From: Acaryochloris marina MBIC11017
GTDB lineage: Bacteria > Cyanobacteriota > Cyanobacteriia > Thermosynechococcales > Thermosynechococcaceae
NCBI RefSeq assembly: GCF_000018105.1
Contig: NC_009925.1
Location: 5,040,001-5,072,000 of the forward strand
Direction: 5' to 3'
DNA: 32,000 nucleotides
Shown here: positions 7,983 to 29,832 of the stretch, piece by piece
How positions within the stretch are numbered: position 1 is the first letter of the stretch
Layout of the letters: each line of letters opens with the position of its first letter
Notes under the pieces: model-generated
The model's database searches: none
What the model saw: the letters and a program-made list of their open reading frames with translations, nothing else
What the model was told of the DNA's origin: nothing
Position numbers and translations under genes: made by a program

Positions 7983-10799
7983 CTACCGAAACCCCCTTAC
8001 GGCCCAGTAGCCCGATAGGGCTGAAGTTATGCCAGAGGTGAGAGCAATGGCAAATAGCCACCAAGCTGCGATCGCAGCGGACTGACGAACTTTATCGGCC
8101 TGACGTTGGGTGTCTTGTTTCAATTCACGGGCCTGCTGTTGCAGCTCGGTTTGCAGTTGATCGACTTGGTCTAAGAGTTGCTGCTGGAGTGCTTCAGCCT
8201 GTTCAGACAGTTGGTGTTTGACGGTATCTTCTAAGTCATCGCGGGTATGGATGATTTGTTGGTAGGTGGATTGGGTCAGTACGGAGATGCGATCGCGAAT
8301 CTGCTGCCAAGAGGATTCTGTCAGTAATTCAGTGGGTGCTTTTCGGGCAAAATCTTGAAGACTGTCCCCGATCTGAGAAACCTCGATATGGGGTAGGGCA
8401 TCACTTAGCGTTTCCTGGAGTTGAATCGACCCTGCATAGGGAAGCGAACTCAGTATCTCTCGGACCTTAGTCGCTACGGTGTCCAGAGAGGATTGGGCTT
8501 GTTTCTGCAAAGATTGAGCTTCCTCTCCTAGCTTTTCCCAAGTTAAAGCAAGCTGCAATGAAATTTGTTCCATTTCTGCAGCCGTTAAATCTTTCCGCTC
8601 CTGGAGTAGAGCAATGATTTCAGACTGGCAAGGAAGCTGGGGGAATGGGTTTGGTGATGAACTTCCCATATTGACTTCCTCTAAAAGGCACTTCAAGTCT
8701 TGTTCTATAGATTCAATCTTTGTAAGCGCAGCGCGATCCTGATATTTGAGATAGCGTTGGAGCTGACCTTGCCAATCTTGAGCAGTGCGTTGCGTCCGAC
8801 GAGCCCAACGGCGAGGAAATTTGGCAATCTGCTGCCATTCTTCTTGCAGGGTCGCCAGGATTGAGTTCAGATTTTGGGGGGTAAGATCGTACTCGTCTTG
8901 TAACTCCTGAGCCAGTGACATCCAGTCCAGTTGTCCCAGATATTGGTTGAACACAGTTAAACCAGATGTCGGTTGATCGATCAGTTGCATCAGTTGAGGC
9001 TTGAGGTCTTCTAAGGTTATGGACTGAACATCCGGCCCTTGCAACTGCTCAGCAATGATGGTCTTAAGTCGTTTGTGAATAGATGGTGGAGCTGGCTGAA
9101 TCGAATCGGGTAAAAGATGTTGCCAGTTTTCAGAGATTGCAGCTAATAGTGCTTTTCGTTTCTTGGGTTGGAGACCTTTACGCCGTTTCAAGATTTTTTG
9201 CAGAGCGTCAAGGTCTGGCGGATAGGAAGCCAGCATTGGAGTTGGAATGGGAATCTCTTCAATTAAGGATTTCAGTTTCTGTTCAATCCCCTCTGGACTC
9301 AATTTGCTCAGGGTGGTGTAGCGGCAATAAGACTCCAGTTTTTGTTGGATCTGATGGAGGTGCTCCCGTTCAGGCGGCTTCAGGTCTGAAGAAGGCTGTA
9401 CTTGATCCAAGATATTGAGGCGCACCCGATTAAGCACGTTGGCAATTTTAGCCAGTTGATGATCAGGTAAATCCTGCCGTTGCTGGAGGAATTCCTGGAT
9501 CTGATCGGGGGTGAGGAGAATTAGCTGTTGGTGAACAAGTGATGGATCCGCTGCAGGGTCATAAAGAATATCTTTGAAGTCAACCTCAATAATGTCCGGC
9601 TGCAGATTCCATGGGGGTGTGTTTAATAGGTAGTCTTCAACGTCCAACTGGATAATATTGATCGGTTGCTTGGACTCAGATGAACCCGTCAGTTTTTGCT
9701 GAGTCGATTGCAGGACCTGCCAAATTCGCTGTACGTCCCAGTCCGATAAATCAACTCGTCGGAGAGCAGTGCGAAGTAGCCCTTTGAAATCAATATCCTG
9801 TAACGTGCTCCAGGAATGGGAGGTTTCTAAGGGGGCGAGTTGCGTGGATAAGGATTCGGATTGTAAGTCCGATGGATCTGCCGTTTGCAGAAAGTTTTTG
9901 AGATCTGTGACAGGGGCCGATTGCTGAGGGTGTTCTGGAACTGGGTGTGGGTCGTTTCCCACCTCTTGAGTTAGCTTTTGAAGCTGCTGCTGAAGTTCTT
10001 CCAGTATGGGCTGAGGGAGGTTTAGCCGATTTTGCAACTCTTCTACGATCTGCCCCAAATCGATCGTGTGATTTTCTGTCGTATTGGCAATCACCTCTTC
10101 TGCAATTTGCGAGAGATGGGTTGCTTTAGAGGGGGTTTCAGACTTCAGCTTAGCTAGAGTGCTCTCAAATACAGGAGAGAAGTCCATGTCCTCCAAAGCC
10201 TGGATTAGCTTAGAATGTCCTATCACGTCTGGATCTTCATCAGCAGAGCTTGTGTCTGATGATGTGGGATTGAAGAGTTGGCCGACGGCTGCAAACAGTC
10301 GTCGTAATCCTGCGCGAGTAAACCCCAAGACCGTATCGGCGATAGTCCCCACTGCTGATGTGCTCAACCAAGTGAGCAGAATCAGATAAACGGCCCAAAC
10401 TAAGCCCCCTAAAATTGCCCCTAGCCATGGATCGCTTACCTGACTGAGTTTGACTGCTAAATAACAAGCCGCAAATAACACTCCATCAATGGAGAGCATA
10501 ATGGCCAAGCCTGCTGCGACACCGATCAGCGCAACACTACCAAAGCTAGCGTCTTCAGGTTCTGGTGGCTTATCTGAAGTTGGGGGGTTGGGTTTCAGGT
10601 TAAATATGGATAACCCAATGGCAATACCAAAATTAGCCAGCAATAACTGGAAAGCGAGTCCGAATAAAAGACCCGCTAAAACAACAACGATAATCTGTCC
10701 ACCGGAGAGTATAGTGGCAGAGTCTAGACGAGAATTTAGCAAGGCTCTGTTGACGGTACTGATCATGGCCCTCCCAGAGAATGCATAGTCCTGAAACAT
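7983..10799 (-). CDS. Large membrane-anchored coiled-coil protein (hypothetical)
   Basis: 938 aa. Hydrophobic helices occupy residues about 40-165 and the extreme C-terminus (AAIAAWWLFAIALTSGITSALSGYWAV). The roughly 700 aa between them are Gln/Leu/Glu-rich and helical. Confidence 0.8.
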   Translation of the reverse strand: MFQDYAFSGRAMISTVNRALLNSRLDSATILSGGQIIVVVLAGLLFGLAFQLLLANFGIAIGLSIFNLKPNPPTSDKPPEPEDASFGSVALIGVAAGLAIMLSIDGVLFAACYLAVKLSQVSDPWLGAILGGLVWAVYLILLTWLSTSAVGTIADTVLGFTRAGLRRLFAAVGQLFNPTSSDTSSADEDPDVIGHSKLIQALEDMDFSPVFESTLAKLKSETPSKATHLSQIAEEVIANTTENHTIDLGQIVEELQNRLNLPQPILEELQQQLQKLTQEVGNDPHPVPEHPQQSAPVTDLKNFLQTADPSDLQSESLSTQLAPLETSHSWSTLQDIDFKGLLRTALRRVDLSDWDVQRIWQVLQSTQQKLTGSSESKQPINIIQLDVEDYLLNTPPWNLQPDIIEVDFKDILYDPAADPSLVHQQLILLTPDQIQEFLQQRQDLPDHQLAKIANVLNRVRLNILDQVQPSSDLKPPEREHLHQIQQKLESYCRYTTLSKLSPEGIEQKLKSLIEEIPIPTPMLASYPPDLDALQKILKRRKGLQPKKRKALLAAISENWQHLLPDSIQPAPPSIHKRLKTIIAEQLQGPDVQSITLEDLKPQLMQLIDQPTSGLTVFNQYLGQLDWMSLAQELQDEYDLTPQNLNSILATLQEEWQQIAKFPRRWARRTQRTAQDWQGQLQRYLKYQDRAALTKIESIEQDLKCLLEEVNMGSSSPNPFPQLPCQSEIIALLQERKDLTAAEMEQISLQLALTWEKLGEEAQSLQKQAQSSLDTVATKVREILSSLPYAGSIQLQETLSDALPHIEVSQIGDSLQDFARKAPTELLTESSWQQIRDRISVLTQSTYQQIIHTRDDLEDTVKHQLSEQAEALQQQLLDQVDQLQTELQQQARELKQDTQRQADKVRQSAAIAAWWLFAIALTSGITSALSGYWAVRGFR

Positions 10800-13676: not shown

Positions 13677-14939
13677 CAGGGCGACCGCACATAGAAGTTA
13701 ACAAAGCATTCGAATTAGGAAGAGGTGGAGGATAATGCCTCAAAAGCAACGCTCAGCAAGCCATGACATCCTCTCCCTTTGCCTCAATTATTGAACACTT
13801 CAGCGACTTAGACGACCCGAGAGCAGCCCACCGCATAGAGTATTCGCTAGAAGATATCATCTTCATCACCCTATGCGCTGTCCTTTGTGGAGCAGATAAT
13901 TGGGTGGAAGTGGCCAACTATGGTTGTTCCAAAGCCCAGTGGTTAAAGCAATGGATAGCATTGCCAAACGGTATTCCCTCCCATGACACCTTCGAGTGGG
14001 TCTTTGCCAGATTGAAACCTCAACAATTGCAGCAGTGCTTTCTCAATTGGACTCAAGCCATCTATCATCTGAGCGCAGGAGCACTGATTGCCATTGACGG
14101 TAAGACGCTGCGGGGCGCGATTGCAACCGGTGAGCAGCGCAGCTTGATTCACATGGTCAGTGCATGGGCCAGTCACAATCGTCTCGTTTTAGGTCAACGC
14201 ACCGTTGAGGAGAAATCTAATGAGATTACGGCTATCCCTGAATTACTGAAAATCCTAGAGCTTGAAGGAGCTTTGGTCAGTATTGACGCGATGGGCTGTC
14301 AAACCGCGATTGCCGAGACGATTATTGAGGGCCAAGGGGATTATGTGTTGGCCCTCAAAGGCAATCAAGGTGATTTATATAACGATGTGGTGCAACTGTT
14401 TGACCATGCTTGTCAGACTCAATTTCAGGGGATTGAGCATGATAGCTATCAAACCGTCGAGAAAGGGCATGGGCGAATTGAGCATCGCACCTATTGGACA
14501 ATGGGGCAAACCGATTACTTACTGGGGGCTGAGCGTTGGGCTCAATTGAAGTCGATTGGGTGCGTTGAATCGTGTCGTCGTCAGCCAGGACACCCAGGCA
14601 CACTTCAGCGGCGCTATTACCTTTTGAGCATTGAGAGTGATGCACAACGGTTTGCCGATGCTGTGCGCTCTCATTGGGGGATTGAAAACCAGTTGCACTG
14701 GATTTTGGATGTGGGATTTCGTGAAGATAAACTGCGTGCCTGTCAGGGATACAGTGCTCAAAACTTATCCGTCATTCGTCATATTGCTGCTAATTTGTTG
14801 CAGCAAGAGTCAACGGCTAAATGTGGGGTTAAGGCAAAACGGCTCAAGGCAGGTTGGGATGATGACTACCTGGTCAAGATCCTCAGCGCTGCTGCCAAGG
14901 GAATACCTGCTTCATGAAGAACTATGTGCGGTCGCCCTG
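13677..14939 (+). mobile_element. ISAs1-family insertion sequence, apparently intact
   Basis: Perfect 18-bp terminal inverted repeats: CAGGGCGACCGCACATAG (13677-13694) and its reverse complement (14922-14939). They are flanked by the identical 10-bp direct repeat CAGAGATCCA (13667-13676 and 14940-14949). One transposase ORF lies inside. Confidence 0.9.
13763..14917 (+). CDS. ISAs1-family transposase (H-repeat-associated type)
   Basis: 384 aa. The N-terminus FSDLDDPRAAHRIEYSLEDIIFITLCAVLCGADNWVEVANYG and the later IDAMGCQ and HWGIENQLHW blocks are typical of ISAs1 transposases. Confidence 0.9.
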   Translation: MTSSPFASIIEHFSDLDDPRAAHRIEYSLEDIIFITLCAVLCGADNWVEVANYGCSKAQWLKQWIALPNGIPSHDTFEWVFARLKPQQLQQCFLNWTQAIYHLSAGALIAIDGKTLRGAIATGEQRSLIHMVSAWASHNRLVLGQRTVEEKSNEITAIPELLKILELEGALVSIDAMGCQTAIAETIIEGQGDYVLALKGNQGDLYNDVVQLFDHACQTQFQGIEHDSYQTVEKGHGRIEHRTYWTMGQTDYLLGAERWAQLKSIGCVESCRRQPGHPGTLQRRYYLLSIESDAQRFADAVRSHWGIENQLHWILDVGFREDKLRACQGYSAQNLSVIRHIAANLLQQESTAKCGVKAKRLKAGWDDDYLVKILSAAAKGIPAS

Positions 14940-16280: not shown

Positions 16281-16976
16281 GTGTTCGAGGCGAAAGTGCG
16301 TCAGATTTGTCAACTGTATGACTCAGCAGCTGAATTGGCAGCTCAACAGATTCACCTTGTCAGTACGGATGAAATGACGGGCATTCAAGCGCTTGAACGA
16401 CTATACCTAGACCAAGCCATGAAACCAGGGCAACCACGTCGCTTGGAATTTGAATATAAACGGCACGGTACCCTCAGTTTGATTGCCAACTGGCACGTGG
16501 CTCTGGGAAAGGTGATTGCGCCTTCTATCGGACCCACTCGAAAAGAGTTTGACTTTGCCAATCATATTGCCAATACCGTTGAAACAGCACCGGACGATGG
16601 ATGGATTTTTCTACTCGACCAACTCAATACCCATCGCTCTGCTTCCTTGGTGCGATGGGTTGCTGCTTGTTGCGGTATGGATTCAGAGTTAGGTGTTAAA
16701 GGTCAATCCGGTATTCTCAAATCGATGGAGACTCGCACAGCTTTCTTGAGCGACCCCAGCCATCGGATCCGATTTGTTTATATCCCCAAACATACCTCCT
16801 GGCTCAATCAGATTGAATGCTGGTTTAGTATTTTGGTGCGTCGATTGATTCGTCGAGGCAATTTCACCTCCAAGGATGATTTGCAACAGCGCATCCTCGA
16901 ATTTATTGAGTATTTCAATCACACGATGGCCAAACCTTTCCAATGGCAATTTAAGGGATTCCAACCTCGACTATAG
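16281..16976 (+). CDS. IS630-family transposase, DDE catalytic part (orfB)
   Basis: DDE-type blocks are present: LVSTDEMTG, FLLDQLNTHRS and PKHTSWLNQIECWFS. This frame is already open from 16203 and reads ...EAQLQPHRSRYWLNANPEDPEVFEA, the usual continuation of orfA. It is displaced by +1 relative to orfA. Confidence 0.85.
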   Translation: MFEAKVRQICQLYDSAAELAAQQIHLVSTDEMTGIQALERLYLDQAMKPGQPRRLEFEYKRHGTLSLIANWHVALGKVIAPSIGPTRKEFDFANHIANTVETAPDDGWIFLLDQLNTHRSASLVRWVAACCGMDSELGVKGQSGILKSMETRTAFLSDPSHRIRFVYIPKHTSWLNQIECWFSILVRRLIRRGNFTSKDDLQQRILEFIEYFNHTMAKPFQWQFKGFQPRL

Positions 16977-19600: not shown

Positions 19601-21718
19601 ATGTTGAGTATCAGCATCAAAGTTCTTCCGCTAACGTCGGCTACATTGATTTTGCTGTCTCAATACACCCCTGCGATCGCAGCGTCAACCTGGATGCCGG
19701 AGTTTGATCCGGGCAAATCAGTCTATGTTGATCCAGCTTTGTCAGGGCATCCTATTGCCCCCTTCCAGTTCTCTCCCAAATTGGAGACTCAGCTCTCCCA
19801 GGAATCCAAAGAAGGTCTGCGCTATTTTGTGGTGGCGGCCCAACAAGGTAATGAGCCTATCCCTTCAGGTAAGCCCTTGGGAGTGGCAAAAGTCGATGAG
19901 CTGTTGTCAATCTGGACCACTCGCCCAGGCTTTCCCCGAGAGAACTATGTTGTCATCTTCTGGGTTCGTAAGCGTGTGAGTGTCTATAAAGGCTCAGTAG
20001 GAGTTAATGCGGGTAAAGCTGGTCGGGAAGCAGGTGTGCTTCCAGCACGGCTCTCCAGTCCCACTGGACTGGTCATTCCGGCGTTAAAAGCCAATATGCC
20101 TGCCGATCCTGAAGGGGCAATGATAGATATCGTCACCAATATTGAAAATCAAGTTACATCCTACCGAGAAACACAGGTCCGGCGTCAAAGAGCTGCTAAA
20201 GCCCGGCAAGAGCAGGAGCGGGTTGCTGCCCAAGAACGGGAGCAGTTTAACCAAAATCTTCAGTCCTGGTTGCAAGCATTCGTCAATGCGCTCCCATTTG
20301 TGGGAGGTATGGGTGGAATTGGCTTCATCCTGATGAATGGACGGCGGCGGAAAGCCAAGGCTCAAAAGCTAATTAATGAATGGTCAACCCTCTGCCAAAA
20401 TACCTCAAATCTTTATTTAGAGGTAGAAAATAATGAGCTACCGAAACTCCAGGCACTCCCCTTAGACATTGATGAGATGCTCAAGGCCAAGTTTGACCTA
20501 CTAGTGCATCGCTTAGCAGAATTTATGGCCTGGTCATCGGTTGCCAGCGAATTAGTCACCCAAGCTCAAGCCTTGTTAAACAAAGGGAAGTCTCGTCAAG
20601 CGATCTACACTCTAACGAAAGACAGTGTGATCGTTGAAAACAACAAAGTCCCAGTGGTTCTCGCCAGTTTACGTGGAGGGATCGATATTGCCCAAACGTT
20701 GATGGCTGATGAGCTTAAAAGTGGCCTAAACGATCAATGGCAATCCATAAAATCGGCTTTGAGCGAACTGCTCTCTATTCAACAAAGCTATTTGGAACTA
20801 TCCCAGAAAGATATATTCACAGTCCTACTGAAGCGTCCAGAAGAAATTTTAGACAAGCATATTCCAGAACTTAATCGTTATGGACTCCATCAAGGGGCCT
20901 TTGTGAATTCATCTCATGGGTTTGAGAACTGGGTAAGCGAATATGGGCAACTGATTCAACAGACTGAACTAGAATTCACATCCTCGCAAATCGTGAATTC
21001 AGTAGAGAACCAAAAGAAAGCAATTGAAATGCTAGATCGACTGGCATCTCGTATTCAACAAGCCGTCATGGATAAGAGAAAATGCGAGAAGGTGACCCAC
21101 CAGAATTTTTCTGGCAAGAAACTGGCAGAAAAAATTGCACAAGCTTCGACAGCCCTTGAGCAAGTAAAGACCCACTTCCCCCATGAGCCATACCTGCGAT
21201 ATGAAGCAAATGTGGAAAAAGCCTTAGCCGTGAAGAACGAGCAGTTTCCCCAGAACCACGCTCAATTTATTCAGGCTTATCAACAGAAGTATTTTAGTGA
21301 TGCTCTCAAGCGACTAGAGCAGACTCGCACTCTAGAAAAAGATTGGATGATGACCCTTACCCGAATTGTTGACTATCCAGTGAGACTTCAGGAAAAGAAA
21401 CGAATGCTGGAGAGGCAGCTAGAAAGCATTCAGCGCCGCAACCAAGCGTTGCAAAGTCGGCATCAGGTAGAGTTTGGCACCCTGGCTTGGAATTCATCAT
21501 CTCTGGACAGTCTGGAGAGCAGAATCGATGCACTTGAATATTCTGTCTCACGAGCAGAGGACGAACAACAGCGGGAATCATCTTCAAGCAGCTCTCTCTG
21601 GTCTGACGATAGCTCTTGGAACTCAAGTAGTGGATCGGATTTTAGTAGTTTTAGTGGTAGTGACTACGGTAGTAGCGGCAGCGATTATGGTAGTGGCAGT
21701 GGGGGTGGAGATTATTAA
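19601..21718 (+). CDS. Signal peptide + TPM-like domain + TM helix + long helical domain + Ser/Gly/Asp/Tyr tail (hypothetical)
   Basis: 705 aa. There is a signal-like N-terminus (LTSATLILLSQYTPAIAAS), and residues about 70-190 loosely resemble a TPM (YgcG-type) domain. One TM helix (ALPFVGGMGGIGFILM) is followed by RRRKAKAQK. The C-terminus is ...SSSGSDFSSFSGSDYGSSGSDYGSGSGGGDY. Confidence 0.75.
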   Translation: MLSISIKVLPLTSATLILLSQYTPAIAASTWMPEFDPGKSVYVDPALSGHPIAPFQFSPKLETQLSQESKEGLRYFVVAAQQGNEPIPSGKPLGVAKVDELLSIWTTRPGFPRENYVVIFWVRKRVSVYKGSVGVNAGKAGREAGVLPARLSSPTGLVIPALKANMPADPEGAMIDIVTNIENQVTSYRETQVRRQRAAKARQEQERVAAQEREQFNQNLQSWLQAFVNALPFVGGMGGIGFILMNGRRRKAKAQKLINEWSTLCQNTSNLYLEVENNELPKLQALPLDIDEMLKAKFDLLVHRLAEFMAWSSVASELVTQAQALLNKGKSRQAIYTLTKDSVIVENNKVPVVLASLRGGIDIAQTLMADELKSGLNDQWQSIKSALSELLSIQQSYLELSQKDIFTVLLKRPEEILDKHIPELNRYGLHQGAFVNSSHGFENWVSEYGQLIQQTELEFTSSQIVNSVENQKKAIEMLDRLASRIQQAVMDKRKCEKVTHQNFSGKKLAEKIAQASTALEQVKTHFPHEPYLRYEANVEKALAVKNEQFPQNHAQFIQAYQQKYFSDALKRLEQTRTLEKDWMMTLTRIVDYPVRLQEKKRMLERQLESIQRRNQALQSRHQVEFGTLAWNSSSLDSLESRIDALEYSVSRAEDEQQRESSSSSSLWSDDSSWNSSSGSDFSSFSGSDYGSSGSDYGSGSGGGDY

Positions 21719-22407: not shown

Positions 22408-22884
22408 ATGGTCCAATACACCCTGAAAGAAGACCCAGAAGCAGTGATCAAGATTCCTGGTAAGGACTCCAAAAAGGCTCGCGAAAAAGCTATGAATCAA
22501 CTGATGGACTTGATGGATAGTGGAAAACTTAAAACCTCCCTCAATCAAGGCTTTAGTCCCAATGACTTCATTGAAGTCCAGACGACGGTTCCAACTAAGC
22601 CGTCTCCCCAGGAAGATGAAGTTGCTCAAGCGGTGCAAATCTTAAATCTCCTTGCCTCTCTCAAGTTGAAGATGCAGGAGTTGCAACAACAGGCCTTGAA
22701 AACTCGGGCAATTGTCGATTTACTATTCTCGGATGAACCCATTTCAGAAGAAGACGTTTTGCAGTTGAAAGAAGGGTTTAAAGTGCTGAAAAAATTTGCT
22801 CAAGCCAATATTCAATATCAGGAAACCCGGAAACGAGCTGAATCGGCAAGAGCTATTTTAGATCGGGCTTTGCAATCTAAGTAA
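22408..22884 (+). CDS. Hypothetical protein
   Basis: A 158-aa ATG-initiated ORF, charged and helical. No family recognised. Confidence 0.6.
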   Translation: MVQYTLKEDPEAVIKIPGKDSKKAREKAMNQLMDLMDSGKLKTSLNQGFSPNDFIEVQTTVPTKPSPQEDEVAQAVQILNLLASLKLKMQELQQQALKTRAIVDLLFSDEPISEEDVLQLKEGFKVLKKFAQANIQYQETRKRAESARAILDRALQSK

Positions 22885-22952
22885 AGGCTGGATAGGTACC
22901 GAGTATTGCGCCTCAATCATCCTGGGTCTGCTGGCAAGGCGACTGGCCGTTG

Positions 22953-23129
22953 TTAACGAGAAACTTCTTCACCCATCAGGGATGCGGCAATCGTCGCGAA
23001 TTGATTGATGCTCAGAGAAATACGTCCTTCCTGTGGGTAGGTGATGAGTTGAGTGGTGGTTAGACTCTCTGTCAGTTGCCTAATCATTTTTATGGGCACG
23101 TTGCGGTCTTGTTCACCGTAGAATCCAGA
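22953..23129 (-). pseudogene. Orphan C-terminal fragment of an alpha/beta hydrolase (58 codons + stop)
   Basis: My own translation of the minus strand is SGFYGEQDRNVPIKMIRQLTESLTTTQLITYPQEGRISLSINQFATIAASLMGEEVSR*. This is the G..D..vP (catalytic Asp) to GH (catalytic His, here GR) segment of alpha/beta hydrolases. A TGA lies directly upstream and there is no start. It is below the ORF-track length cut-off. Confidence 0.65.
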
Positions 23130-23721
23130 TCAAGGATATTTGAATTTCTTCTAAATTGAAGTCCCACTCATGGGTATATAAATACTTCTTTGGCAGTTTT
23201 GAAGAAGTTATCTATTTATCTTGCATTATCTTGAGCACATTTTTAAATAAACTTAATAACCAAAACAACACCAAAGAGCACAAAAAAGCATTTTTATTCT
23301 GATTCTTTACTTATAGGCTTCTATATAGATAGAAGCCCAATTAGATGCTGCGTTGGTGTTGAGGATTCTGTTAGTTATACTTCTGAGAGTGAATTTTGCC
23401 AAATTATTCGATTATCAATAGCATTTATCCCCTACTAACTCTGGGTTCTAGTCTAATAAACATCATGCAGCGCGATGCTCAGGAATAAGTATTGTGTAAG
23501 CGCTTTAAATTTCTGTTCGCGCCCCTGATGACATGGTTGCTAGGAGATGAGGGATGCAACCAGCTCATAACAAAGGACTCTAATTTATTGCATAAGTAAT
23601 TTTGCTGTAGAGCTATATCTAGATACGGATGAACCAATCAAGTGGATTGCTGTAAACACAAGAAGGGAAATTTGAGTAAGCGCTGCGCCAAAGATTTTGC
23701 ACTTAATAGTCAACTAAAAAT

Positions 23722-24765
23722 ATGCTATATCTTGAGCCCAAATATATAGATGCAGTAAAAAATGTTTCACAAGCTGCTGACTTATACTCTCTTTTGCAAA
23801 ATGCGATCCAGCTTGAGCATTCAACTATTCCACCATACTTAACTGCAGCATATAGTCTGAAACCTGCAAACAGCGAAATAAGGCGAATCATAGCTAACAT
23901 TGCTGCAGAAGAAATGTTGCATATGGCAATTGTTGCAAATATACTTAATGCGATTGGTGGATCCCCACAAATTTCTATTCCGGAATTTATTCCAAAGTAT
24001 CCAACTACATTACCGATGGGCATCATTGGTGGATTAGAGGTTGGGTTAGAAAGATTCTCCAAAGACTTAGTAAAGAATAAGTTTATGGAAATTGAGCAAC
24101 CGGAGAATCCTATTTTCGAAGAAAATGATTCTACCTCAACTGGGGCTTCAAGTTCTGATCTCGTAACAATTGGCGACTTCTATCGGGAGATCATAAATAA
24201 AATAAGTGAACTTGGAGATGATATTTTTACTGGCGATCCTGAATTACAGGTTGTCATGGGTGCGGGATTTCCCATTAGTCAGCTCTTTCCAATTACAAAT
24301 AGTGATACAGCAATTAGATCTCTTGAGTGGATTATTAAAGAGGGTGAAGGGACAACTAGACTACCCTTCGATGATGAAGATGAGCCAGCTCATTATTATC
24401 AATTTGAGGCAATTTTTGAAGGCCGCCAGCTTGATCCAGATGCAGAAGAAGAAGAAGAAGGGTATCCTTACACAGGTCGAGAGATTCGCTTCGATCCCTC
24501 AGAAGTCTGGGACTTTCCTAGTAACCAAAAAGCAGCTAACTATCCAGACGGTTCAGAAGAACGCAGGAGAGTCGATCAATTTAACCTAGCTTATTCAAAT
24601 ATTCTACGAGTCTTACAAGAGGCCTTCAATGGTAAACCAGAAGAAATAGGTGAATCAGTTTTCCTGATGGGAGGACTTAGAAGATTTGCACGAGATGTTG
24701 TTTCTAGGACTGATCCAAGGACAAACATGAAATGCGGGCTTACCTTTGAATTTATTGAAGAGTGA
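23722..24765 (+). CDS. Ferritin-like domain protein (VioB/RebD-type ferritin-like fold)
   Basis: 347 aa. LLQNAIQLEHSTIPPYLTAAYSL and AAEEMLHMAIVANILNAIGG (E...ExxH) are typical of the Pfam Ferritin-like family. There is an acidic insert (DPDAEEEEEGY). First gene of the low-GC operon. Confidence 0.8.
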   Translation: MLYLEPKYIDAVKNVSQAADLYSLLQNAIQLEHSTIPPYLTAAYSLKPANSEIRRIIANIAAEEMLHMAIVANILNAIGGSPQISIPEFIPKYPTTLPMGIIGGLEVGLERFSKDLVKNKFMEIEQPENPIFEENDSTSTGASSSDLVTIGDFYREIINKISELGDDIFTGDPELQVVMGAGFPISQLFPITNSDTAIRSLEWIIKEGEGTTRLPFDDEDEPAHYYQFEAIFEGRQLDPDAEEEEEGYPYTGREIRFDPSEVWDFPSNQKAANYPDGSEERRRVDQFNLAYSNILRVLQEAFNGKPEEIGESVFLMGGLRRFARDVVSRTDPRTNMKCGLTFEFIEE

Positions 24766-24836
24766 GAAATGCATATTTTTCGCAATTATTCTAGATGTCA
24801 ACAACACAAATAATGCAATCAGAATAGGAGAAAATA

Positions 24837-26042
24837 ATGGCTTTCCCGAGCGATTTTAGCAATGTTGAAATTTGCAAGATTCATCCTGCAATTGGTATTG
24901 CTAGAGTATCTAATAATGACGATTTCTATATTTTCGGAAATGATCCAGGAAATTACAAATCAGGTGGCTTAATAAAGAGGCAGGCTGTTCAATTTAGAAT
25001 TTTTGTCTATGGAGAAAATAATGTCGGTCTTGGAGAGTTGACACCTCAGGTCATGAGTGATCTCGGTATTACAGCAATTTGGTCTGCTAAGGTAGCAAAT
25101 CGAAAGATTGCTAGATTGGAAGGTACCCCATTAAGCGGCAATGAGTTTGTCATCTCTGCTGAGGCCACATCAAACGATGCAAATAGTGGACAACTTGTTG
25201 GTTCGTTACCAGACTTTGATGAAGGCTCTGCAATACCTTTAGGCCAAATTACACGTGAAGGCGTGTTCATCCCTCCAAAAGGTGGTGTCTATAGGAAATC
25301 ATCTGGTGTTGAAATTGAGCCTTATCCTGCATTATCTGCACAAGTTGCTGACACAAGTTGTGATGGTTCAGTATCAGTGAACCTCACTATAGATGGGGCT
25401 GGACAAATTGAAGTTCTACCTGCATGTATCATAGTTGCTCCACAAGACTTCTCTCCTGATACAAATGAAGGATATACACTAAATGAATATCTAAAGGATG
25501 CTTTAGATATTCCACTGAAAAGAGAGTTGCCACCTGTTGACAATATACATAATCAGACTGCACGTGAAATTGATGAAGAAGCTCTTAAAACTGGAAGTGC
25601 TGATTTTGCTCCTGGATATGAAGTTTCATTAGGTGGGCGTGGTGAAGTTTTAGATATTAGAAATCTTGTTTATAGAAGTCAAGATGATCCTAGGATTGAT
25701 CCTCGAGAAGTAAGAATTCTCTACAAGAATAAACAAAACAAGTTAGAGCCTCGTGGAGCAGTACCAGGACAGTTGACTAGTGGTTTATGTTCTTCATGGC
25801 AAGGTGATTTTACAGCTTGTGTGGGCTATTGGGTAGAACATTTGCCACCAAACGCCTTCTTGGATGAGGACGCTTCAACAGAAGTTCGTGTTTTCAGAAA
25901 GCAATATTCTGATACATCTTCATCAGCTGAAGAATTGCGAACAGGTGAAGAATTTAATATAGGAGTAGATAAAGTTGGTATCGTTCGTTTGAGAGAAAGT
26001 CGAAAAGTAGAAACAGAACGTGATCCAGGAGATGATATCTAA
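24837..26042 (+). CDS. Short LodA/GoxA-like protein (putative cysteine-tryptophylquinone oxidase)
   Basis: 401 aa with AGGAG 8 nt upstream. N-terminal blocks are CKIHPAIGIARVSN, IKRQAVQFRIFVYG, IWSAKVANRK, CDGSVSV and APQDFSPD. The C-terminal block is LCSSWQGDFTACVGYWVEHLPP. These match the LodA N-terminal domain and the WQADFxxC...YWWPP quinone-site region as I remember them. Confidence 0.7.
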   Translation: MAFPSDFSNVEICKIHPAIGIARVSNNDDFYIFGNDPGNYKSGGLIKRQAVQFRIFVYGENNVGLGELTPQVMSDLGITAIWSAKVANRKIARLEGTPLSGNEFVISAEATSNDANSGQLVGSLPDFDEGSAIPLGQITREGVFIPPKGGVYRKSSGVEIEPYPALSAQVADTSCDGSVSVNLTIDGAGQIEVLPACIIVAPQDFSPDTNEGYTLNEYLKDALDIPLKRELPPVDNIHNQTAREIDEEALKTGSADFAPGYEVSLGGRGEVLDIRNLVYRSQDDPRIDPREVRILYKNKQNKLEPRGAVPGQLTSGLCSSWQGDFTACVGYWVEHLPPNAFLDEDASTEVRVFRKQYSDTSSSAEELRTGEEFNIGVDKVGIVRLRESRKVETERDPGDDI

Positions 26043-26152
26043 GCTTAGAATCAATCAGTTGCTAATCCTTTACTGGAGAATCTTTCTTAGGCCATGGATA
26101 GGTGATTGCAACTGATTCTCCTTCGATACTAATCATTGATTGTAATCAGGCA

Positions 26153-27514
26153 ATGATACAAATCATGTCCCAATACTCCTCTAAGTTAAAGATGCCGAAT
26201 GTACATCTGTTTCGAGCAGAAGAGCATTCTATGCTGCTATCTATTGAGCAAGGTTCAATATATGAAATCGATGATATTTACGCTGAGATGCTCGATCGAT
26301 GGATGGAATTTGGTGAAGTAGAAAGAGTGCATCAAGTATTATCGGCAAAGGGAATACATCTGAATTCAGTTCCTCCTGAGGCTCCACCTAAATCTATTCC
26401 AATTCATGCACTCTCTCTAGCCATAGCTCAAAAATGTAATCTTGGTTGCACCTACTGCTATGCCCATCAAGGTAGCTTTGGTGGCAATGAAGGTAGTATG
26501 TCTTTTGAGGTCGCGAGGAATTCTATTGATCTCTTGTTGAAAGGAACAGAATCTGGAGAAACAGTTTCCTTAGCCTATTTAGGAGGAGAACCTTTAGCCA
26601 ATCGTTCTGTTTTGCAGAAAACAACAGAATACACTATTGCCAAAGCTTCTTCAGTGGGAATTAAGACAAACTTCTCATTGACAACGAATGGAACATTGTT
26701 GACTGTTGAAGATGCAGAGTTTTTTAATAATCATGGCTTTTCTGTCACGATTAGCATTGATGGAAATCAAGAAAAACATGATTTCCTAAGACCATTTAAA
26801 TCAGGAAAGGGAAGTTACAAAACGGTCATAGAAAAAGTAAAACTTTTATTAGATATTCCTCACCGACGTTGTCGAGTATCCGCAAGAGTTACAGTGACAC
26901 CTGAAAACTTGTGTTTGGAAGAGACTCTGGACAAACTCGTTTCACTCGGCTTTGATAATGTCATGTTCTCTCCAGTTCTGAAATCACCAACTGGCCTACA
27001 TCAAATGGGAGAATTTGAATTTGAAGTGCTGCTAAATCAAATGATAGAGTGTGGCCAAAAATTTGAGCAGAATTTTGAAGATCACAAGATCTATCCCTTT
27101 GCAAATATACTGAACACGCTTCAACGAATACATCATTATAGATGTGACGCTTACCCCTGTGGCGCAGGAGGAGCCTATTTGGGTGTTTCTTCAAAGGGAG
27201 ACTTGTATGCTTGTCATCGATTTGTTGATGATGCTCAAGGTTCAATGGGAAATATCGTAGATGGTGTTGATCCTGCTAAGCAAGAGAATTGGCTGGCGGC
27301 CAGAAATGTGCATACTCAGGAACCATGCAAGGCTTGCTGGGCACGATACTTGTGTGGAGGCGGTTGTCATCATGAATCAATTTACAGAGGTCGACCTGCC
27401 TGCGATTACATTCGCGGTTGGTTGCATTACTGTTTAGGCGTATATGTCAAGCTTCTTAAGATTAATCCTTCACTCCTGGATCAGATTTTGAACAACCAAT
27501 CTGTTTCTGGATAG
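26153..27514 (+). CDS. Radical SAM / SPASM-domain enzyme (anSME/QhpD-like maturase)
   Basis: CNLGCTYC (CxxxCxxC, nt 26435-26458), GGEPL, and a SPASM-type Cys cluster: CDAYPCGAGG...YACHRF...CKACWARYLCGGGCHH. The ORF is open from GTG 26102. The first ATGs are at 26153 and about 26192, so the start is uncertain. Confidence 0.9.
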   Translation: MIQIMSQYSSKLKMPNVHLFRAEEHSMLLSIEQGSIYEIDDIYAEMLDRWMEFGEVERVHQVLSAKGIHLNSVPPEAPPKSIPIHALSLAIAQKCNLGCTYCYAHQGSFGGNEGSMSFEVARNSIDLLLKGTESGETVSLAYLGGEPLANRSVLQKTTEYTIAKASSVGIKTNFSLTTNGTLLTVEDAEFFNNHGFSVTISIDGNQEKHDFLRPFKSGKGSYKTVIEKVKLLLDIPHRRCRVSARVTVTPENLCLEETLDKLVSLGFDNVMFSPVLKSPTGLHQMGEFEFEVLLNQMIECGQKFEQNFEDHKIYPFANILNTLQRIHHYRCDAYPCGAGGAYLGVSSKGDLYACHRFVDDAQGSMGNIVDGVDPAKQENWLAARNVHTQEPCKACWARYLCGGGCHHESIYRGRPACDYIRGWLHYCLGVYVKLLKINPSLLDQILNNQSVSG

Positions 27515-27522
27515 CTATCGAA

Positions 27523-28944
27523 ATGGGAACCAAGGACCAAACCACTTTTGATGTCTGTGTGATCGGTGGTGGTCCTGCAGGCTCAGTAGTATCCCATCGT
27601 TTGGCATCGTTAGGATATAAAGTATGCATAATTGAATCCCAAAAGTTCCCTCGACCTAACCATATTGGGGCTTCACTACTTCCCAGTACTTTGCCTTTAT
27701 TAGATTGTATAGGAGTACGAGAGTCTGTTGAAAATACGGGATTTCTCCTCCACGAGCGCACAATTGTTTGGTGGTCAGAGACTTTTCCTATATATAAAAA
27801 TCAACATGAGCAGCCTGGATTCCATGTGGATCGTGGCCAATTCGATCAATTACTTTTGCAGAATGCCAAAGAGAATGGAGTTGAAGTCCATCAACCAGCT
27901 CATGCATTTCGTCCGGAAAGGATCAAGACTCAGAAATGGCAGATTCGCATCCGTCAAGATGGAATGCAAAGAACGATACTATCTAAAATAGTAGTTGATG
28001 CATCTGGTGGGCGAAGTCTAGTTCCCGGACGCCGGATTCTAGCATCAGCTCCTCTTCTAGCTTTGTATGCCTATTGGAAAGGCACAAATTTTCAGACAAT
28101 TGAAGCACGTATTGAAGCGGGAGAAAGTGAGTGGTTTTGGTATGCACCTTTAAGTCAGAACAAAGCAGTTACTGCAGTTTTTCTTGATCCCAGTTGCTTA
28201 TCTCTAAACTCAAAACAAGGAATTGAAAATATATATCACAAGTTACTGAATCGATTCAGATTGTTCCCTGCTAAATTTATCAAAGGTATTGAGGGTAAAG
28301 TAAAAATATGTGATGCATCAACTCGGTATGCAGAGAACCCTATAGGAGACAGCTTTATTCGAATTGGAGATGCCTGCTTATGTTTAGACCCATTATCTTC
28401 TCAAGGTATTCAGTCAGCAGTAGCTTCAGGCTTGCAAGCTGCAATTATCATCAATACTTTTCTCAAATATCCTGAAGATACAGAATTGGCAATTTCCTTT
28501 TATAATGCTCGCCAAAAAGAAAAAAGAAACGAATACATAACAAAAACGGCTAGTTTTTATCAACAAGTCGCTGCTGTTCGTAATAAACTATTTTGGCATC
28601 AGAGGGCTACTTTTCCTGAAGGTCAATTAGCTCCTATTCTTAAGACAAAAAGTTTCGATGGTAATTGTAAAATTCAACTATCAGATCATGCATATATGAA
28701 CTCTACACCCATAATCGAAGGAAATAGAATTATCTCTAAGCATGCTTTATATCATGATATGTTATCTCGTCCAATAGCATTTGTTGGTGGAGTGGAAATA
28801 GTACCTTTGTTGAGAAAAGTTAGTCCAGGGACAACAATACAAGATATCTTACAGGTTTGGTCGAAGAATTTGCCAGTTGAGCTTAGCTATAATATTATGG
28901 CTTGGCTTTGGATTCGTAAAATCATTGTTCCTTTTCATCTATGA
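27523..28944 (+). CDS. FAD-dependent oxidoreductase/monooxygenase (LodB/QhpG/halogenase-like fold)
   Basis: 473 aa. FDVCVIGGGPAGSVVSHRLASLGYKVCIIE (GxGxxG), KFPRPNHIGASLLP, EWFWYAPL and IRIGDACLCLDPLSSQGIQSA (GD...DP..S.G). The start is 8 nt after the radical-SAM stop. Confidence 0.85.
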   Translation: MGTKDQTTFDVCVIGGGPAGSVVSHRLASLGYKVCIIESQKFPRPNHIGASLLPSTLPLLDCIGVRESVENTGFLLHERTIVWWSETFPIYKNQHEQPGFHVDRGQFDQLLLQNAKENGVEVHQPAHAFRPERIKTQKWQIRIRQDGMQRTILSKIVVDASGGRSLVPGRRILASAPLLALYAYWKGTNFQTIEARIEAGESEWFWYAPLSQNKAVTAVFLDPSCLSLNSKQGIENIYHKLLNRFRLFPAKFIKGIEGKVKICDASTRYAENPIGDSFIRIGDACLCLDPLSSQGIQSAVASGLQAAIIINTFLKYPEDTELAISFYNARQKEKRNEYITKTASFYQQVAAVRNKLFWHQRATFPEGQLAPILKTKSFDGNCKIQLSDHAYMNSTPIIEGNRIISKHALYHDMLSRPIAFVGGVEIVPLLRKVSPGTTIQDILQVWSKNLPVELSYNIMAWLWIRKIIVPFHL

Positions 28945-29010
28945 TTGATACTCGATTCTCAGAGTTGATTTCTCAACAGAAACTAAAGTTACTGATTGAT
29001 GCGTAAGTAG

Positions 29011-29109
29011 TCAAATAAAATAGCCATAAATCATGGCTTCACTCGTTTCTGGATAGAGTTCGTAATCCTTCCCCAAACGACGATAGCGATTCAGGCAACT
29101 AAAGGTCGT
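29011..29109 (-). pseudogene. IS5-family transposase C-terminal remnant
   Basis: My own translation of the minus strand is TTFSCLNRYRRLGKDYELYPETSEAMIYGYFI*. This is the conserved C-terminus of IS5-group transposases (..W..R.RRL.KDYE..PETSEAMIY..). A TGA lies directly upstream, so only about 32 codons survive. Confidence 0.55.
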
Positions 29110-29184
29110 GCATCAAAAAAATGTGGGATCTCGATTTACAAAGGGTTTCAGTCTTTTTGGAGTATCTCCTGTAAGCCTTTAGTG

Positions 29185-29832
29185 TTAGATGCCTGAGCGA
29201 TTGTTACAGATTTTTTCACACTTTTCTAATGCACAACCGATAGACTCCATGCAACCCACCTGCGCTAGGGCTGTATAGTCTGCTGGGGGCAGTTGGTTCT
29301 TGAATCTAGCTAACACTTTTTCTGGATCACCCTTGAGTGACTGTGCCAGGAAGGATTGCCAAAGTTGGTAGAGTATCGGCACTCTCTTCATAAAGAAGAA
29401 CATTATGCGGCTCATTGGGGAAAGATCTTCAGCAAGATCCATCTGCCATGCCCCAGAAACAATAACAGCAGAATGGAGTCTTTCAGGCATCTTGGCGACA
29501 CAGACTGCGACATATCCACTGCCGCCAGACATACCCAAAACAGAAAATTTATCTAAATTGAGTGCATTGGCAAGACACTCTATATCATTGACCCAGTCGG
29601 AGAATCCTCGGTGCGGTTGAAAATCAGATTGCCCAAGCCCAGGACGATCGGGGGCAATCAGCCTCATCCCAGCTCGCTGAATGTTCTCATTGCCTAATAC
29701 CAATGGCTCTAAGCGACAGGAGGGAGAACCATGAAAATAGAAAACGGGATATCCCTGAGGATCACCATATTCAGCGTAGGCTAACTGTCGCTGATCCGGC
29801 AGGGTGAGAAAAGTGGTAATTTCCATGGTCAT
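29185..29832 (-). pseudogene. Alpha/beta hydrolase, N-terminal 215 codons (truncated; decayed continuation to about 29112)
   Basis: VFYFHGSPSCR (oxyanion HG) and VLGMSGGSGY (GxSxG nucleophile elbow) are present, but there is no Asp/His segment. After an A6 run (plus-strand T6 at 29211-29216) the +1 frame continues SVTIAQASNTKGLQEILQKD*NPL*IEIPHFF, which is hydrolase-like with two stops. The missing C-terminus is the fragment at 22953..23129. Confidence 0.75.

Follow-up and report, generated by a model that had tools for sequence, protein, structure and literature searches.

Cysteine tryptophylquinone (CTQ) has been described in three enzymes only, the quinohemoprotein amine dehydrogenase (QHNDH), LodA and GoxA, and the routes by which the cofactor is made in them are treated as distinct (2025 review PMC11951088; PMC7876137). 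In QHNDH, the CTQ of QhpC joins C37 to W43, and the same peptide carries three thioether pairs made by QhpD, namely C7-E16, C27-D33 and C41-D49 (PMC8172795, PMC7876137). Thioethers from a Cys sulfur to the beta- or gamma-carbon of Asp/Glu-type acceptors have been shown for QhpD and PapB and reported for SCIFF maturases (PMC8172795). A 2015 survey of LodA-like proteins recorded ferritin-like neighbours in fungi only and no radical S-adenosylmethionine (radical-SAM) partner, and did not describe a compact bacterial family (PMC4417212). Here we analyse such a protein of 401 aa from Acaryochloris marina MBIC11017, encoded within a window of 32,000 nt (NC_009925.1, positions 5,040,001 to 5,072,000) in a cassette with genes for a ferritin-like protein, a QhpD-like radical-SAM/SPASM enzyme and a QhpG-type flavin-dependent monooxygenase. 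Its cofactor site and helper genes resemble those of QHNDH, which suggests a common origin of the two CTQ systems. The explanation that we favour, with somewhat better than even confidence, is that a small quinoprotein with CTQ is matured by enzymes of QHNDH type and probably carries an additional Cys318-Asp324 thioether.

The gene is an intact open reading frame (ORF) at 24837..26042 on the forward strand. Translation confirmed what the original prediction, a reading of the DNA letters alone, had said of it: the product has 401 aa, nt 25788-25832 (codons 318-332) encode C318-S-S-W321-Q-G-D324-F-T-A-C328-V-G-Y-W332 followed by VEHLPP, and W332 is the sole Trp downstream of C328. The protein had also been called small for a LodA/GoxA-type enzyme, and at about half the length of the chains in the PDB (726/746 aa for LodA, 816 aa for GoxA) it is. 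The LodA_N model (Pfam PF17990) matches residues 16-94 with 47.9 bits against a cut-off of 26.3 (E 2.2e-12), and in profile alignment the N-terminal KIHPAIGIAR pairs with the very start of LodA, SVHPSIGVAR. In keeping with the original prediction, no signal peptide is evident on inspection of the N-terminus by eye, and the protein is therefore probably cytoplasmic. Against the curated equivalog models for LodA (NF038172, cut-off 600) and GoxA (NF038173, cut-off 750) it scores 29.9 and 35.8 bits, respectively, so that we regard it as a member of the superfamily and an orthologue of neither enzyme, and the substrate of LodA or GoxA is not transferable to it. Membership of the family is already annotated, and the public data contain 443 homologues of about 390-425 aa. 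Profile searches were needed because a single-sequence phmmer search of the PDB retrieved LodA at E 0.18 only.

A predicted-structure search, which had been proposed as a check, placed the protein with the two crystallised enzymes. The AlphaFold2 model, built on an alignment of 87 homologues, has a predicted local distance difference test score (pLDDT) of 93.7 and a predicted template modelling score (pTM) of 0.93, and its top 50 Foldseek matches in the PDB comprise LodA and GoxA entries only (E 8e-12 to 2.5e-9); the query-normalised template modelling score reaches 0.64-0.66 where the alignment covers the whole of LodA. As modelled, the 401-aa protein is thus a conserved compact LodA/GoxA fold with the catalytic core. 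Of the 481 consensus columns of 105 classical LodA-like representatives, the compact family retains 310, and its main loss is a helical mid-region of about 100 columns, inserted in the classical proteins after residues 210-234 of the window protein. Besides this mid-region, the 401-aa protein chiefly lacks the long loop that separates Cys from Trp in LodA, and a portion of the C-terminus.

The cofactor residues are retained throughout. Among 87 homologues at 40-71% identity, C318, S319, W321, Q322, D324, C328 and W332 are invariant, and conserved residues extend over the full length of the protein. We aligned a profile of 123 superfamily representatives with the crystal sequences of LodA (2YMW/3WEU; E 7e-102) and GoxA (6BYW; E 4e-85) as anchors. 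The C328 column aligns with LodA C516 and GoxA C682, the D324 column with LodA D512 and GoxA D678, and the W332 column, the Trp before 'PAQRP', with LodA W581 (YSYW-W581-PPQSP) and GoxA W697, a position printed as the modified residue X in several GoxA entries. These columns hold Cys in 123/123, Asp in 123/123 and Trp in 122/123 representatives, and the P337 column holds Pro in 122/123. On this alignment C328 and W332 are the predicted CTQ residues and D324 the predicted conserved active-site Asp. The original prediction had staked itself in advance on C328 and W332 falling on the CTQ residues, and in the profile alignment they do; its description of the LodA site (CPWQADFFNC, D512, C516 and W581 in a YWWPP context some 65 residues on) agrees with the crystal sequence, and the D-x3-C spacing that it had seen as kept is the one shared with LodA D512/C516. 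Its interpretation, which left open whether the protein is a CTQ scaffold reduced to a minimum or has the LodA fold and a cofactor that is different or absent, draws support from the LodA/GoxA-like fold, the residue alignment and the flavoprotein of Trp-hydroxylase type in the operon.

The original prediction had further held that a long loop between Cys and Trp is missing. Relative to LodA the loop is indeed absent, the LodA crystal sequence running ...ACPWQADFFNC516..., then about 60 residues, then ...YSYW580-W581-PPQSP, and the Cys-Trp spacing is 4 in the 401-aa protein, 65 in LodA and 15 in GoxA. The absence is, however, no peculiarity: among the 123 representatives the spacing is 5 in 68, 9 in 17, 4 in 12 and 3 in one, with a maximum of 22, and the common superfamily motif is PWQADFxxC-xxx-WW-PAQRPD. 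Judged from these alignments, most of the superfamily has a spacing of 4-5 and the long Cys-Trp loops of LodA and GoxA are insertions, so that the 'missing loop' looks ancestral and implies no special reduction. One LodA-like representative of 1402 aa (P0160) contains the complete cofactor motif twice, as PWQADFYNC...WWPAVRPD near residue 786 and as PWQTDFYSC...WWPASRPD near residue 1346, and seems to have arisen by tandem duplication of the entire enzyme. A phmmer search of the PDB with the 50-residue cofactor segment gave chance-level matches only, among them the stretch 'WQNDYNKCLGYW' in the reductive dehalogenase PceA (E 0.93), which we regard as a coincidence.

What truly sets the family apart is a pair of features that the original prediction did not mention, C318 at the position six residues before the active-site Asp (D-6) and the neighbouring genes of QhpD and QhpG type. 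At D-6 the superfamily representatives have Ala in 96/123 and Cys in 20/123, and in a tabulation of the compact-type group that carries Cys there the residue is found in 123/123 sequences. The resulting C-x5-D-x3-C arrangement of Cys318, Asp324 and Cys328 has the spacing of Cys27, Asp33 and Cys37 in QhpC: sequences of QhpC from a true qhp operon and the PDB read L-C27-QPMEA-D33-LYx-C37-xDP-C41-W-W43-PAQVP-D49, and the 401-aa protein reads L-C318-SSWQG-D324-FTA-C328-VGY-W332. In a second compact clade the motif is L-C-SPWQF-D-FEA-C-E-C-NY-W-PAQRP-D, which adds a loop Cys and an Asp equivalent to QhpC D49. This Asp is present in 37/37 sequences with the loop Cys and in 4/86 without it, a co-occurrence that is suggestive only, because few independent lineages are involved.

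Profile-profile comparison with hhalign detected the same similarity. The QhpC profile aligned with the compact family on the cofactor segment with a probability of 93.1% (E 3.2e-7) and with the whole superfamily over 73 columns with a probability of 94.1% (E 1.3e-7), the latter alignment also pairing QhpC GC7TTxFDPGWE16 with a LodA-like CxGGxFxPGIE segment. The observed score was 50.7; 60 column-shuffled controls scored 14.9 +/- 2.9, with a maximum of 26.1, and the reversed alignment scored 16.3. Likewise, the QhpC hidden Markov model scored above 10 bits on 86 of 209 LodA-like sequences, and in the best 40 rows the leading match lies at the CTQ motif.

The compact LodA gene is the second of four same-strand genes separated by intergenic gaps of 71, 59 and 8 nt (Table 1). 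The radical-SAM enzyme has a CxxxCxxC motif (residues 112-119) and, at the C-terminal end, a SPASM region rich in Cys, and its next curated matches after QhpD include PapB and the SCIFF maturase (second- and fourth-best); the true start of its gene may be an ATG downstream of the GTG used here. The flavoprotein matches the QhpG model NF049967 with 285.7 bits, above the cut-off of 240, over profile positions 1-422 of 423, and also matches PDB 7CTQ, a 'peptidyl tryptophan dihydroxylase', at E 5.5e-21. In the ferritin-like protein, E32, E64-x2-H67, E125, E209 and H224 are invariant among 45 homologues; its AlphaFold2 model is helical (pLDDT 92), and the sole significant fold match in the PDB is 3HL1, an uncharacterised structural-genomics protein. 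A promoter and terminator scan of 22800-29300 found sites no more numerous than in shuffled sequence.

We surveyed one genome per species together with metagenome contigs, obtaining 19 compact-type loci (20 with the window), and compared these with 62 classical LodA-like loci. Compact-type loci span very different phyla, with representatives in Leucothrix, Bradyrhizobium, Verrucomicrobia, Planctomycetes, Flavobacterium and others. In 19/19 loci the compact LodA gene is followed immediately by the radical-SAM gene, and a QhpG-length flavoprotein comes next wherever the contig reaches far enough. Around the classical genes, no radical-SAM homologue was found within 7 kb (0/62), and most of these loci have only a shorter LodB-like flavoprotein. 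Thirteen of the 19 loci also have a ferritin-like gene, which precedes the compact LodA gene in 12 of them and comes after the flavoprotein gene in one (L020). In the rhizobial clade its place is taken by a conserved gene for a 355-aa protein (L002:6921-7988; equivalents in L012-L015 and L018) with no precomputed Pfam hit on record; a comparison that asked whether this is a diverged ferritin-like protein found no similarity. The flanks vary between the compact-type loci, with nothing in common that would hint at a substrate.

Pieces of the system also occur rearranged. Plasmids of Nostoc, Streptomyces and Mycetohabitans carry a related radical-SAM gene (38-46% identity) next to a gene for a protein with the motif LC(A/S)PWQxD(Y/F)R(E/D)C(A/G)C(Y/F)YWAAS(R/K)PD; this protein either stands alone (300 aa) or forms a fusion with a ferritin-like domain (629-631 aa). 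The Mycetohabitans and Streptomyces loci encode a separate LodA_N-like protein of 478-481 aa, those of Mycetohabitans and Nostoc continue with a flavoprotein gene, and a 544-aa ferritin-like protein of the Nostoc plasmid carries a piece of the LodA N-domain. Thus, the CTQ-bearing part can be a polypeptide of its own, as in QHNDH, and it physically joins ferritin-like domains; the occurrence of the ferritin-like, LodA_N-like and CTQ-motif parts both separately and fused argues that they work together.

Among all ORFs of at least 20 aa around the window cassette, there is no QhpC-like small ORF. When stop-to-stop frames of 25-190 codons were clustered across the 20 loci, no separate precursor peptide emerged: every family-wide cluster lay inside the main genes, and outside them only clade-specific neighbours clustered. 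As no conserved small ORF exists outside the main genes, the compact LodA protein is the likeliest substrate of the radical-SAM enzyme. Among the cassette genes and their neighbours, in the window and in the related loci, there is also no diheme QhpA, beta-propeller QhpB, protease QhpE or exporter QhpF.

All of the chemistry, from the CTQ and the thioether to the substrate and the part played by the ferritin-like protein, we infer from what the analysis shows: the fold, the homology of the residues, the association of the genes and a motif resembling that of QhpC. The QhpD-like radical-SAM/SPASM enzyme would install a thioether from a Cys sulfur to an Asp methylene, the likeliest pair being C318-D324, the putative counterpart of Cys27-Asp33 in QhpC. 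The QhpG-like flavin monooxygenase would hydroxylate W332, C328 would be linked to the W332 indole, and oxidation would then yield the CTQ quinone. The mature enzyme would oxidise some primary amine or amino acid. The ferritin-like protein may be a physical or redox partner that serves as a late-maturation oxidant, accepts electrons or scavenges peroxide; for a role in peroxide removal, the fusions of catalase with LodA mentioned in a 2026 preprint would offer a parallel.

Several observations weigh against maturation of a compact quinoprotein by QHNDH-type enzymes. The radical-SAM enzyme scores 322.4 bits (E 4.3e-96) with the QhpD model TIGR03906, below the equivalog cut-off of 453, and is only about 31% identical to annotated QhpD/PeaB over 91% of its length, so that its reaction could differ from that of QhpD. 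QhpD recognises a leader peptide of 28 residues on QhpC (PMC7876137), whereas leader peptide, QhpE and QhpF are all absent here. The ferritin-like gene is lacking in one clade of the compact family, and its homologues also occur in unrelated contexts. At the sequence level, the LodA_C model (Pfam PF18417) gives the 401-aa protein a sub-threshold 17.7 bits against a cut-off of 25, a precomputed hit to this model being carried by many of its close homologues. The Pfam QhpC model (PF08992) finds no match in its C-terminal 98 residues, and an HMMER search of the PDB with the QhpC profile recovers QhpC itself only, without LodA or GoxA. Finally, the motif common to QhpC and the compact family surrounds the same cofactor, so its likeness may reflect convergence.

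Two other explanations accept the LodA fold and differ on its chemistry. LodA and GoxA require just a flavoprotein (PMC7876137, PMC11951088), and since the cassette flavoprotein also matches the LodB (141 bits) and GoxB (121 bits) models, whose cut-offs are 400 bits each, the 401-aa protein might be an ordinary small LodA-like CTQ oxidase matured by the flavoprotein alone. The radical-SAM enzyme and the ferritin-like protein would then be co-inherited only and have other work to do, such as modification of the ferritin-like protein or of some substrate that has escaped recognition, and related radical-SAM genes do lie between ferritin-like genes in a Nostoc plasmid. We hold this to be unlikely: the radical-SAM gene follows immediately downstream in all 19 compact-type loci, the clade without a ferritin-like gene included, and in none of the 62 classical ones; the Nostoc, Streptomyces and Mycetohabitans variants keep a CTQ-motif protein beside it; and the family-specific invariant Cys at D-6 would go unexplained. 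A non-classical cofactor in the LodA fold, be it a C328-W332 or other Cys-Trp bond forged by the radical-SAM enzyme, thioethers only or a differently oxidised Trp, would accord with the variety of crosslinks made by radical-SAM/SPASM enzymes, including crosslinks to Trp (PMC5491770), with the score below the QhpD cut-off, and with a Cys-Trp spacing of 4, which is near the superfamily minimum (4 in 12/123, 3 in one). Yet D324, C328 and W332 are kept exactly as in proven CTQ enzymes, a Trp dihydroxylase of QhpG type is always present, and the nearest radical-SAM relatives make Cys to Asp/Glu thioethers and no aromatic crosslinks; we consider such a cofactor slightly less likely still.

The maturases are enzymes of the type that acts on ribosomally synthesised and post-translationally modified peptides, and some relatives encode the CTQ-motif part as a protein of its own (300 aa), so one might ask whether the 401-aa protein is a non-enzyme precursor whose QhpC-like C-terminal segment, once modified, is cut out as a peptide or small subunit. 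The cassette, however, has no protease or exporter gene, the whole chain is predicted as one compact, confident LodA-like fold, and conservation runs along its full length, which leaves this reading highly improbable. A broader proposal, which we find attractive without favouring it on balance, is that the compact family and its split and fused relatives form an evolutionary bridge: QhpC and the C-terminal LodA/GoxA core would be homologous, the radical-SAM plus QhpG route ancestral to both, a QhpC-style Cys318-Asp324 thioether would lie beside CTQ in a LodA fold, and a ferritin-like dimetal partner would replace the hemes.

Table 1. Coordinates of the cassette genes and cofactor features in the window, and of rearranged cassettes at other loci
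Feature	Position	Strand	Basis
Compact LodA/GoxA-superfamily protein, 401 aa	24837..26042	+	LodA_N, AlphaFold2, Foldseek
LodA_N match including KIHPAIGIAR	24882..25118	+	Pfam PF17990
Predicted cofactor segment C318-SSWQG-D324-FTA-C328-VGY-W332-VEHL-P337	25788..25847	+	Homologue invariance, superfamily columns, LodA/GoxA alignment
Ferritin-like protein, 347 aa, first cassette gene	23722..24765	+	Pfam PF12902, E 6.8e-74
Radical-SAM/SPASM enzyme, QhpD-like, 470 aa from GTG start	26102..27514	+	TIGR03906 best NCBIfam match
Flavin-dependent monooxygenase, QhpG type, 473 aa	27523..28944	+	NCBIfam NF049967
Split/fused cassette, Mycetohabitans endofungorum plasmid	L087:120-6861		
Split/fused cassette, Streptomyces plasmid	L088:2463-8267		
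Split/fused cassette, Nostoc UHCC 0302 plasmid	L005:3022-10417		

Elsewhere in the window, two transposase genes lie 7-10 kb upstream of the cassette on the forward strand, one encoding DDE_Tnp_1 with an associated N-terminal domain (13763-14917) and the other DDE_3 (16281-16976); they fit the patchy, often plasmid-borne distribution of the cassette. A 705-aa ORF at 19601-21718 (+) has no Pfam match; its N-terminus is hydrophobic, its long middle part resembles a coiled coil, and its tail (SSSSSSLWSDDSSWNSSSGSDFSSFSGSDYGSSGSDYGSGSGGGDY) is rich in Ser, Gly, Asp and Tyr. A 938-aa ORF at 7983-10799 (-) has no Pfam family at E <= 1e-5. Beyond the flavoprotein gene, an alpha/beta-hydrolase ORF of 215 aa at 29185-29832 (-) covers Abhydrolase_1 profile positions 2-127 of 245 and may be truncated at the C-terminus. 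At other loci, ferritin-like homologues of 45-46% identity occur without a LodA-like or radical-SAM gene in Nostoc sp. NIES-4103 (L085:3796-7050) and Bradyrhizobium (L086:2607-7044), in both cases directly following an uncharacterised protein of about 640 aa. The Nostoc pair sits inside an eboA/TatD/UbiA (ebo-type) cluster, and the Bradyrhizobium pair adjoins a protein with a weak Dyp-peroxidase match.

An incomplete literature search found no link between LodA-like proteins and QhpD-type radical-SAM enzymes. If our interpretation is true, the compact family joins the LodA/GoxA and QHNDH systems evolutionarily, offers a small, probably soluble and cytoplasmic model for CTQ biogenesis, and extends radical-SAM thioether chemistry to the active site of a full-size enzyme. 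The spacing counts also correct a working assumption: within the superfamily, a Cys and a Trp as far apart as in LodA are exceptional.

Among described systems, the 401-aa protein shares with LodA (the L-lysine epsilon-oxidase of Marinomonas mediterranea) and GoxA (the glycine oxidase of Pseudoalteromonas luteoviolacea) the fold, the N-terminal motif and the W-Q-x-D-x3-C ... W signature, as well as a flavoprotein gene in the operon, which is of QhpG type in the cassette and of LodB/GoxB type in LodA and GoxA. It differs from them in its roughly halved size, the extra invariant Cys at D-6 and the constant presence of a radical-SAM/SPASM gene. For the fungal 'group V' LodA-like genes, too, a neighbouring gene for a ferritin-like protein (PF12902) and an associated LodB-like gene have been described (Campillo-Brocal et al. 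2015, PMC4417212), whereas no radical-SAM gene is reported there (PMC4417212). Ranthipeptide maturases of the PapB/SCIFF type resemble the cassette enzyme as its curated matches and in their Cys thioether chemistry, but theirs are short, leader-bearing peptides, while here there is no peptide gene and the likely substrate is a full-size protein.

With QHNDH, the cassette has in common that QhpD-like and QhpG-like genes adjoin the gene of the CTQ-bearing protein, and that the compact cofactor segment has the C-x5-D-x3-C-(x3-5)-W arrangement of QhpC, to which one clade adds the second Cys and W-PAQxP-D. QhpC, however, is an 80-residue peptide caged by three thioethers, whereas the predicted CTQ chain of the cassette is a LodA fold of 400 aa; and in place of leader peptide, QhpE, QhpF, diheme QhpA and beta-propeller QhpB, the cassette carries a ferritin-like protein.

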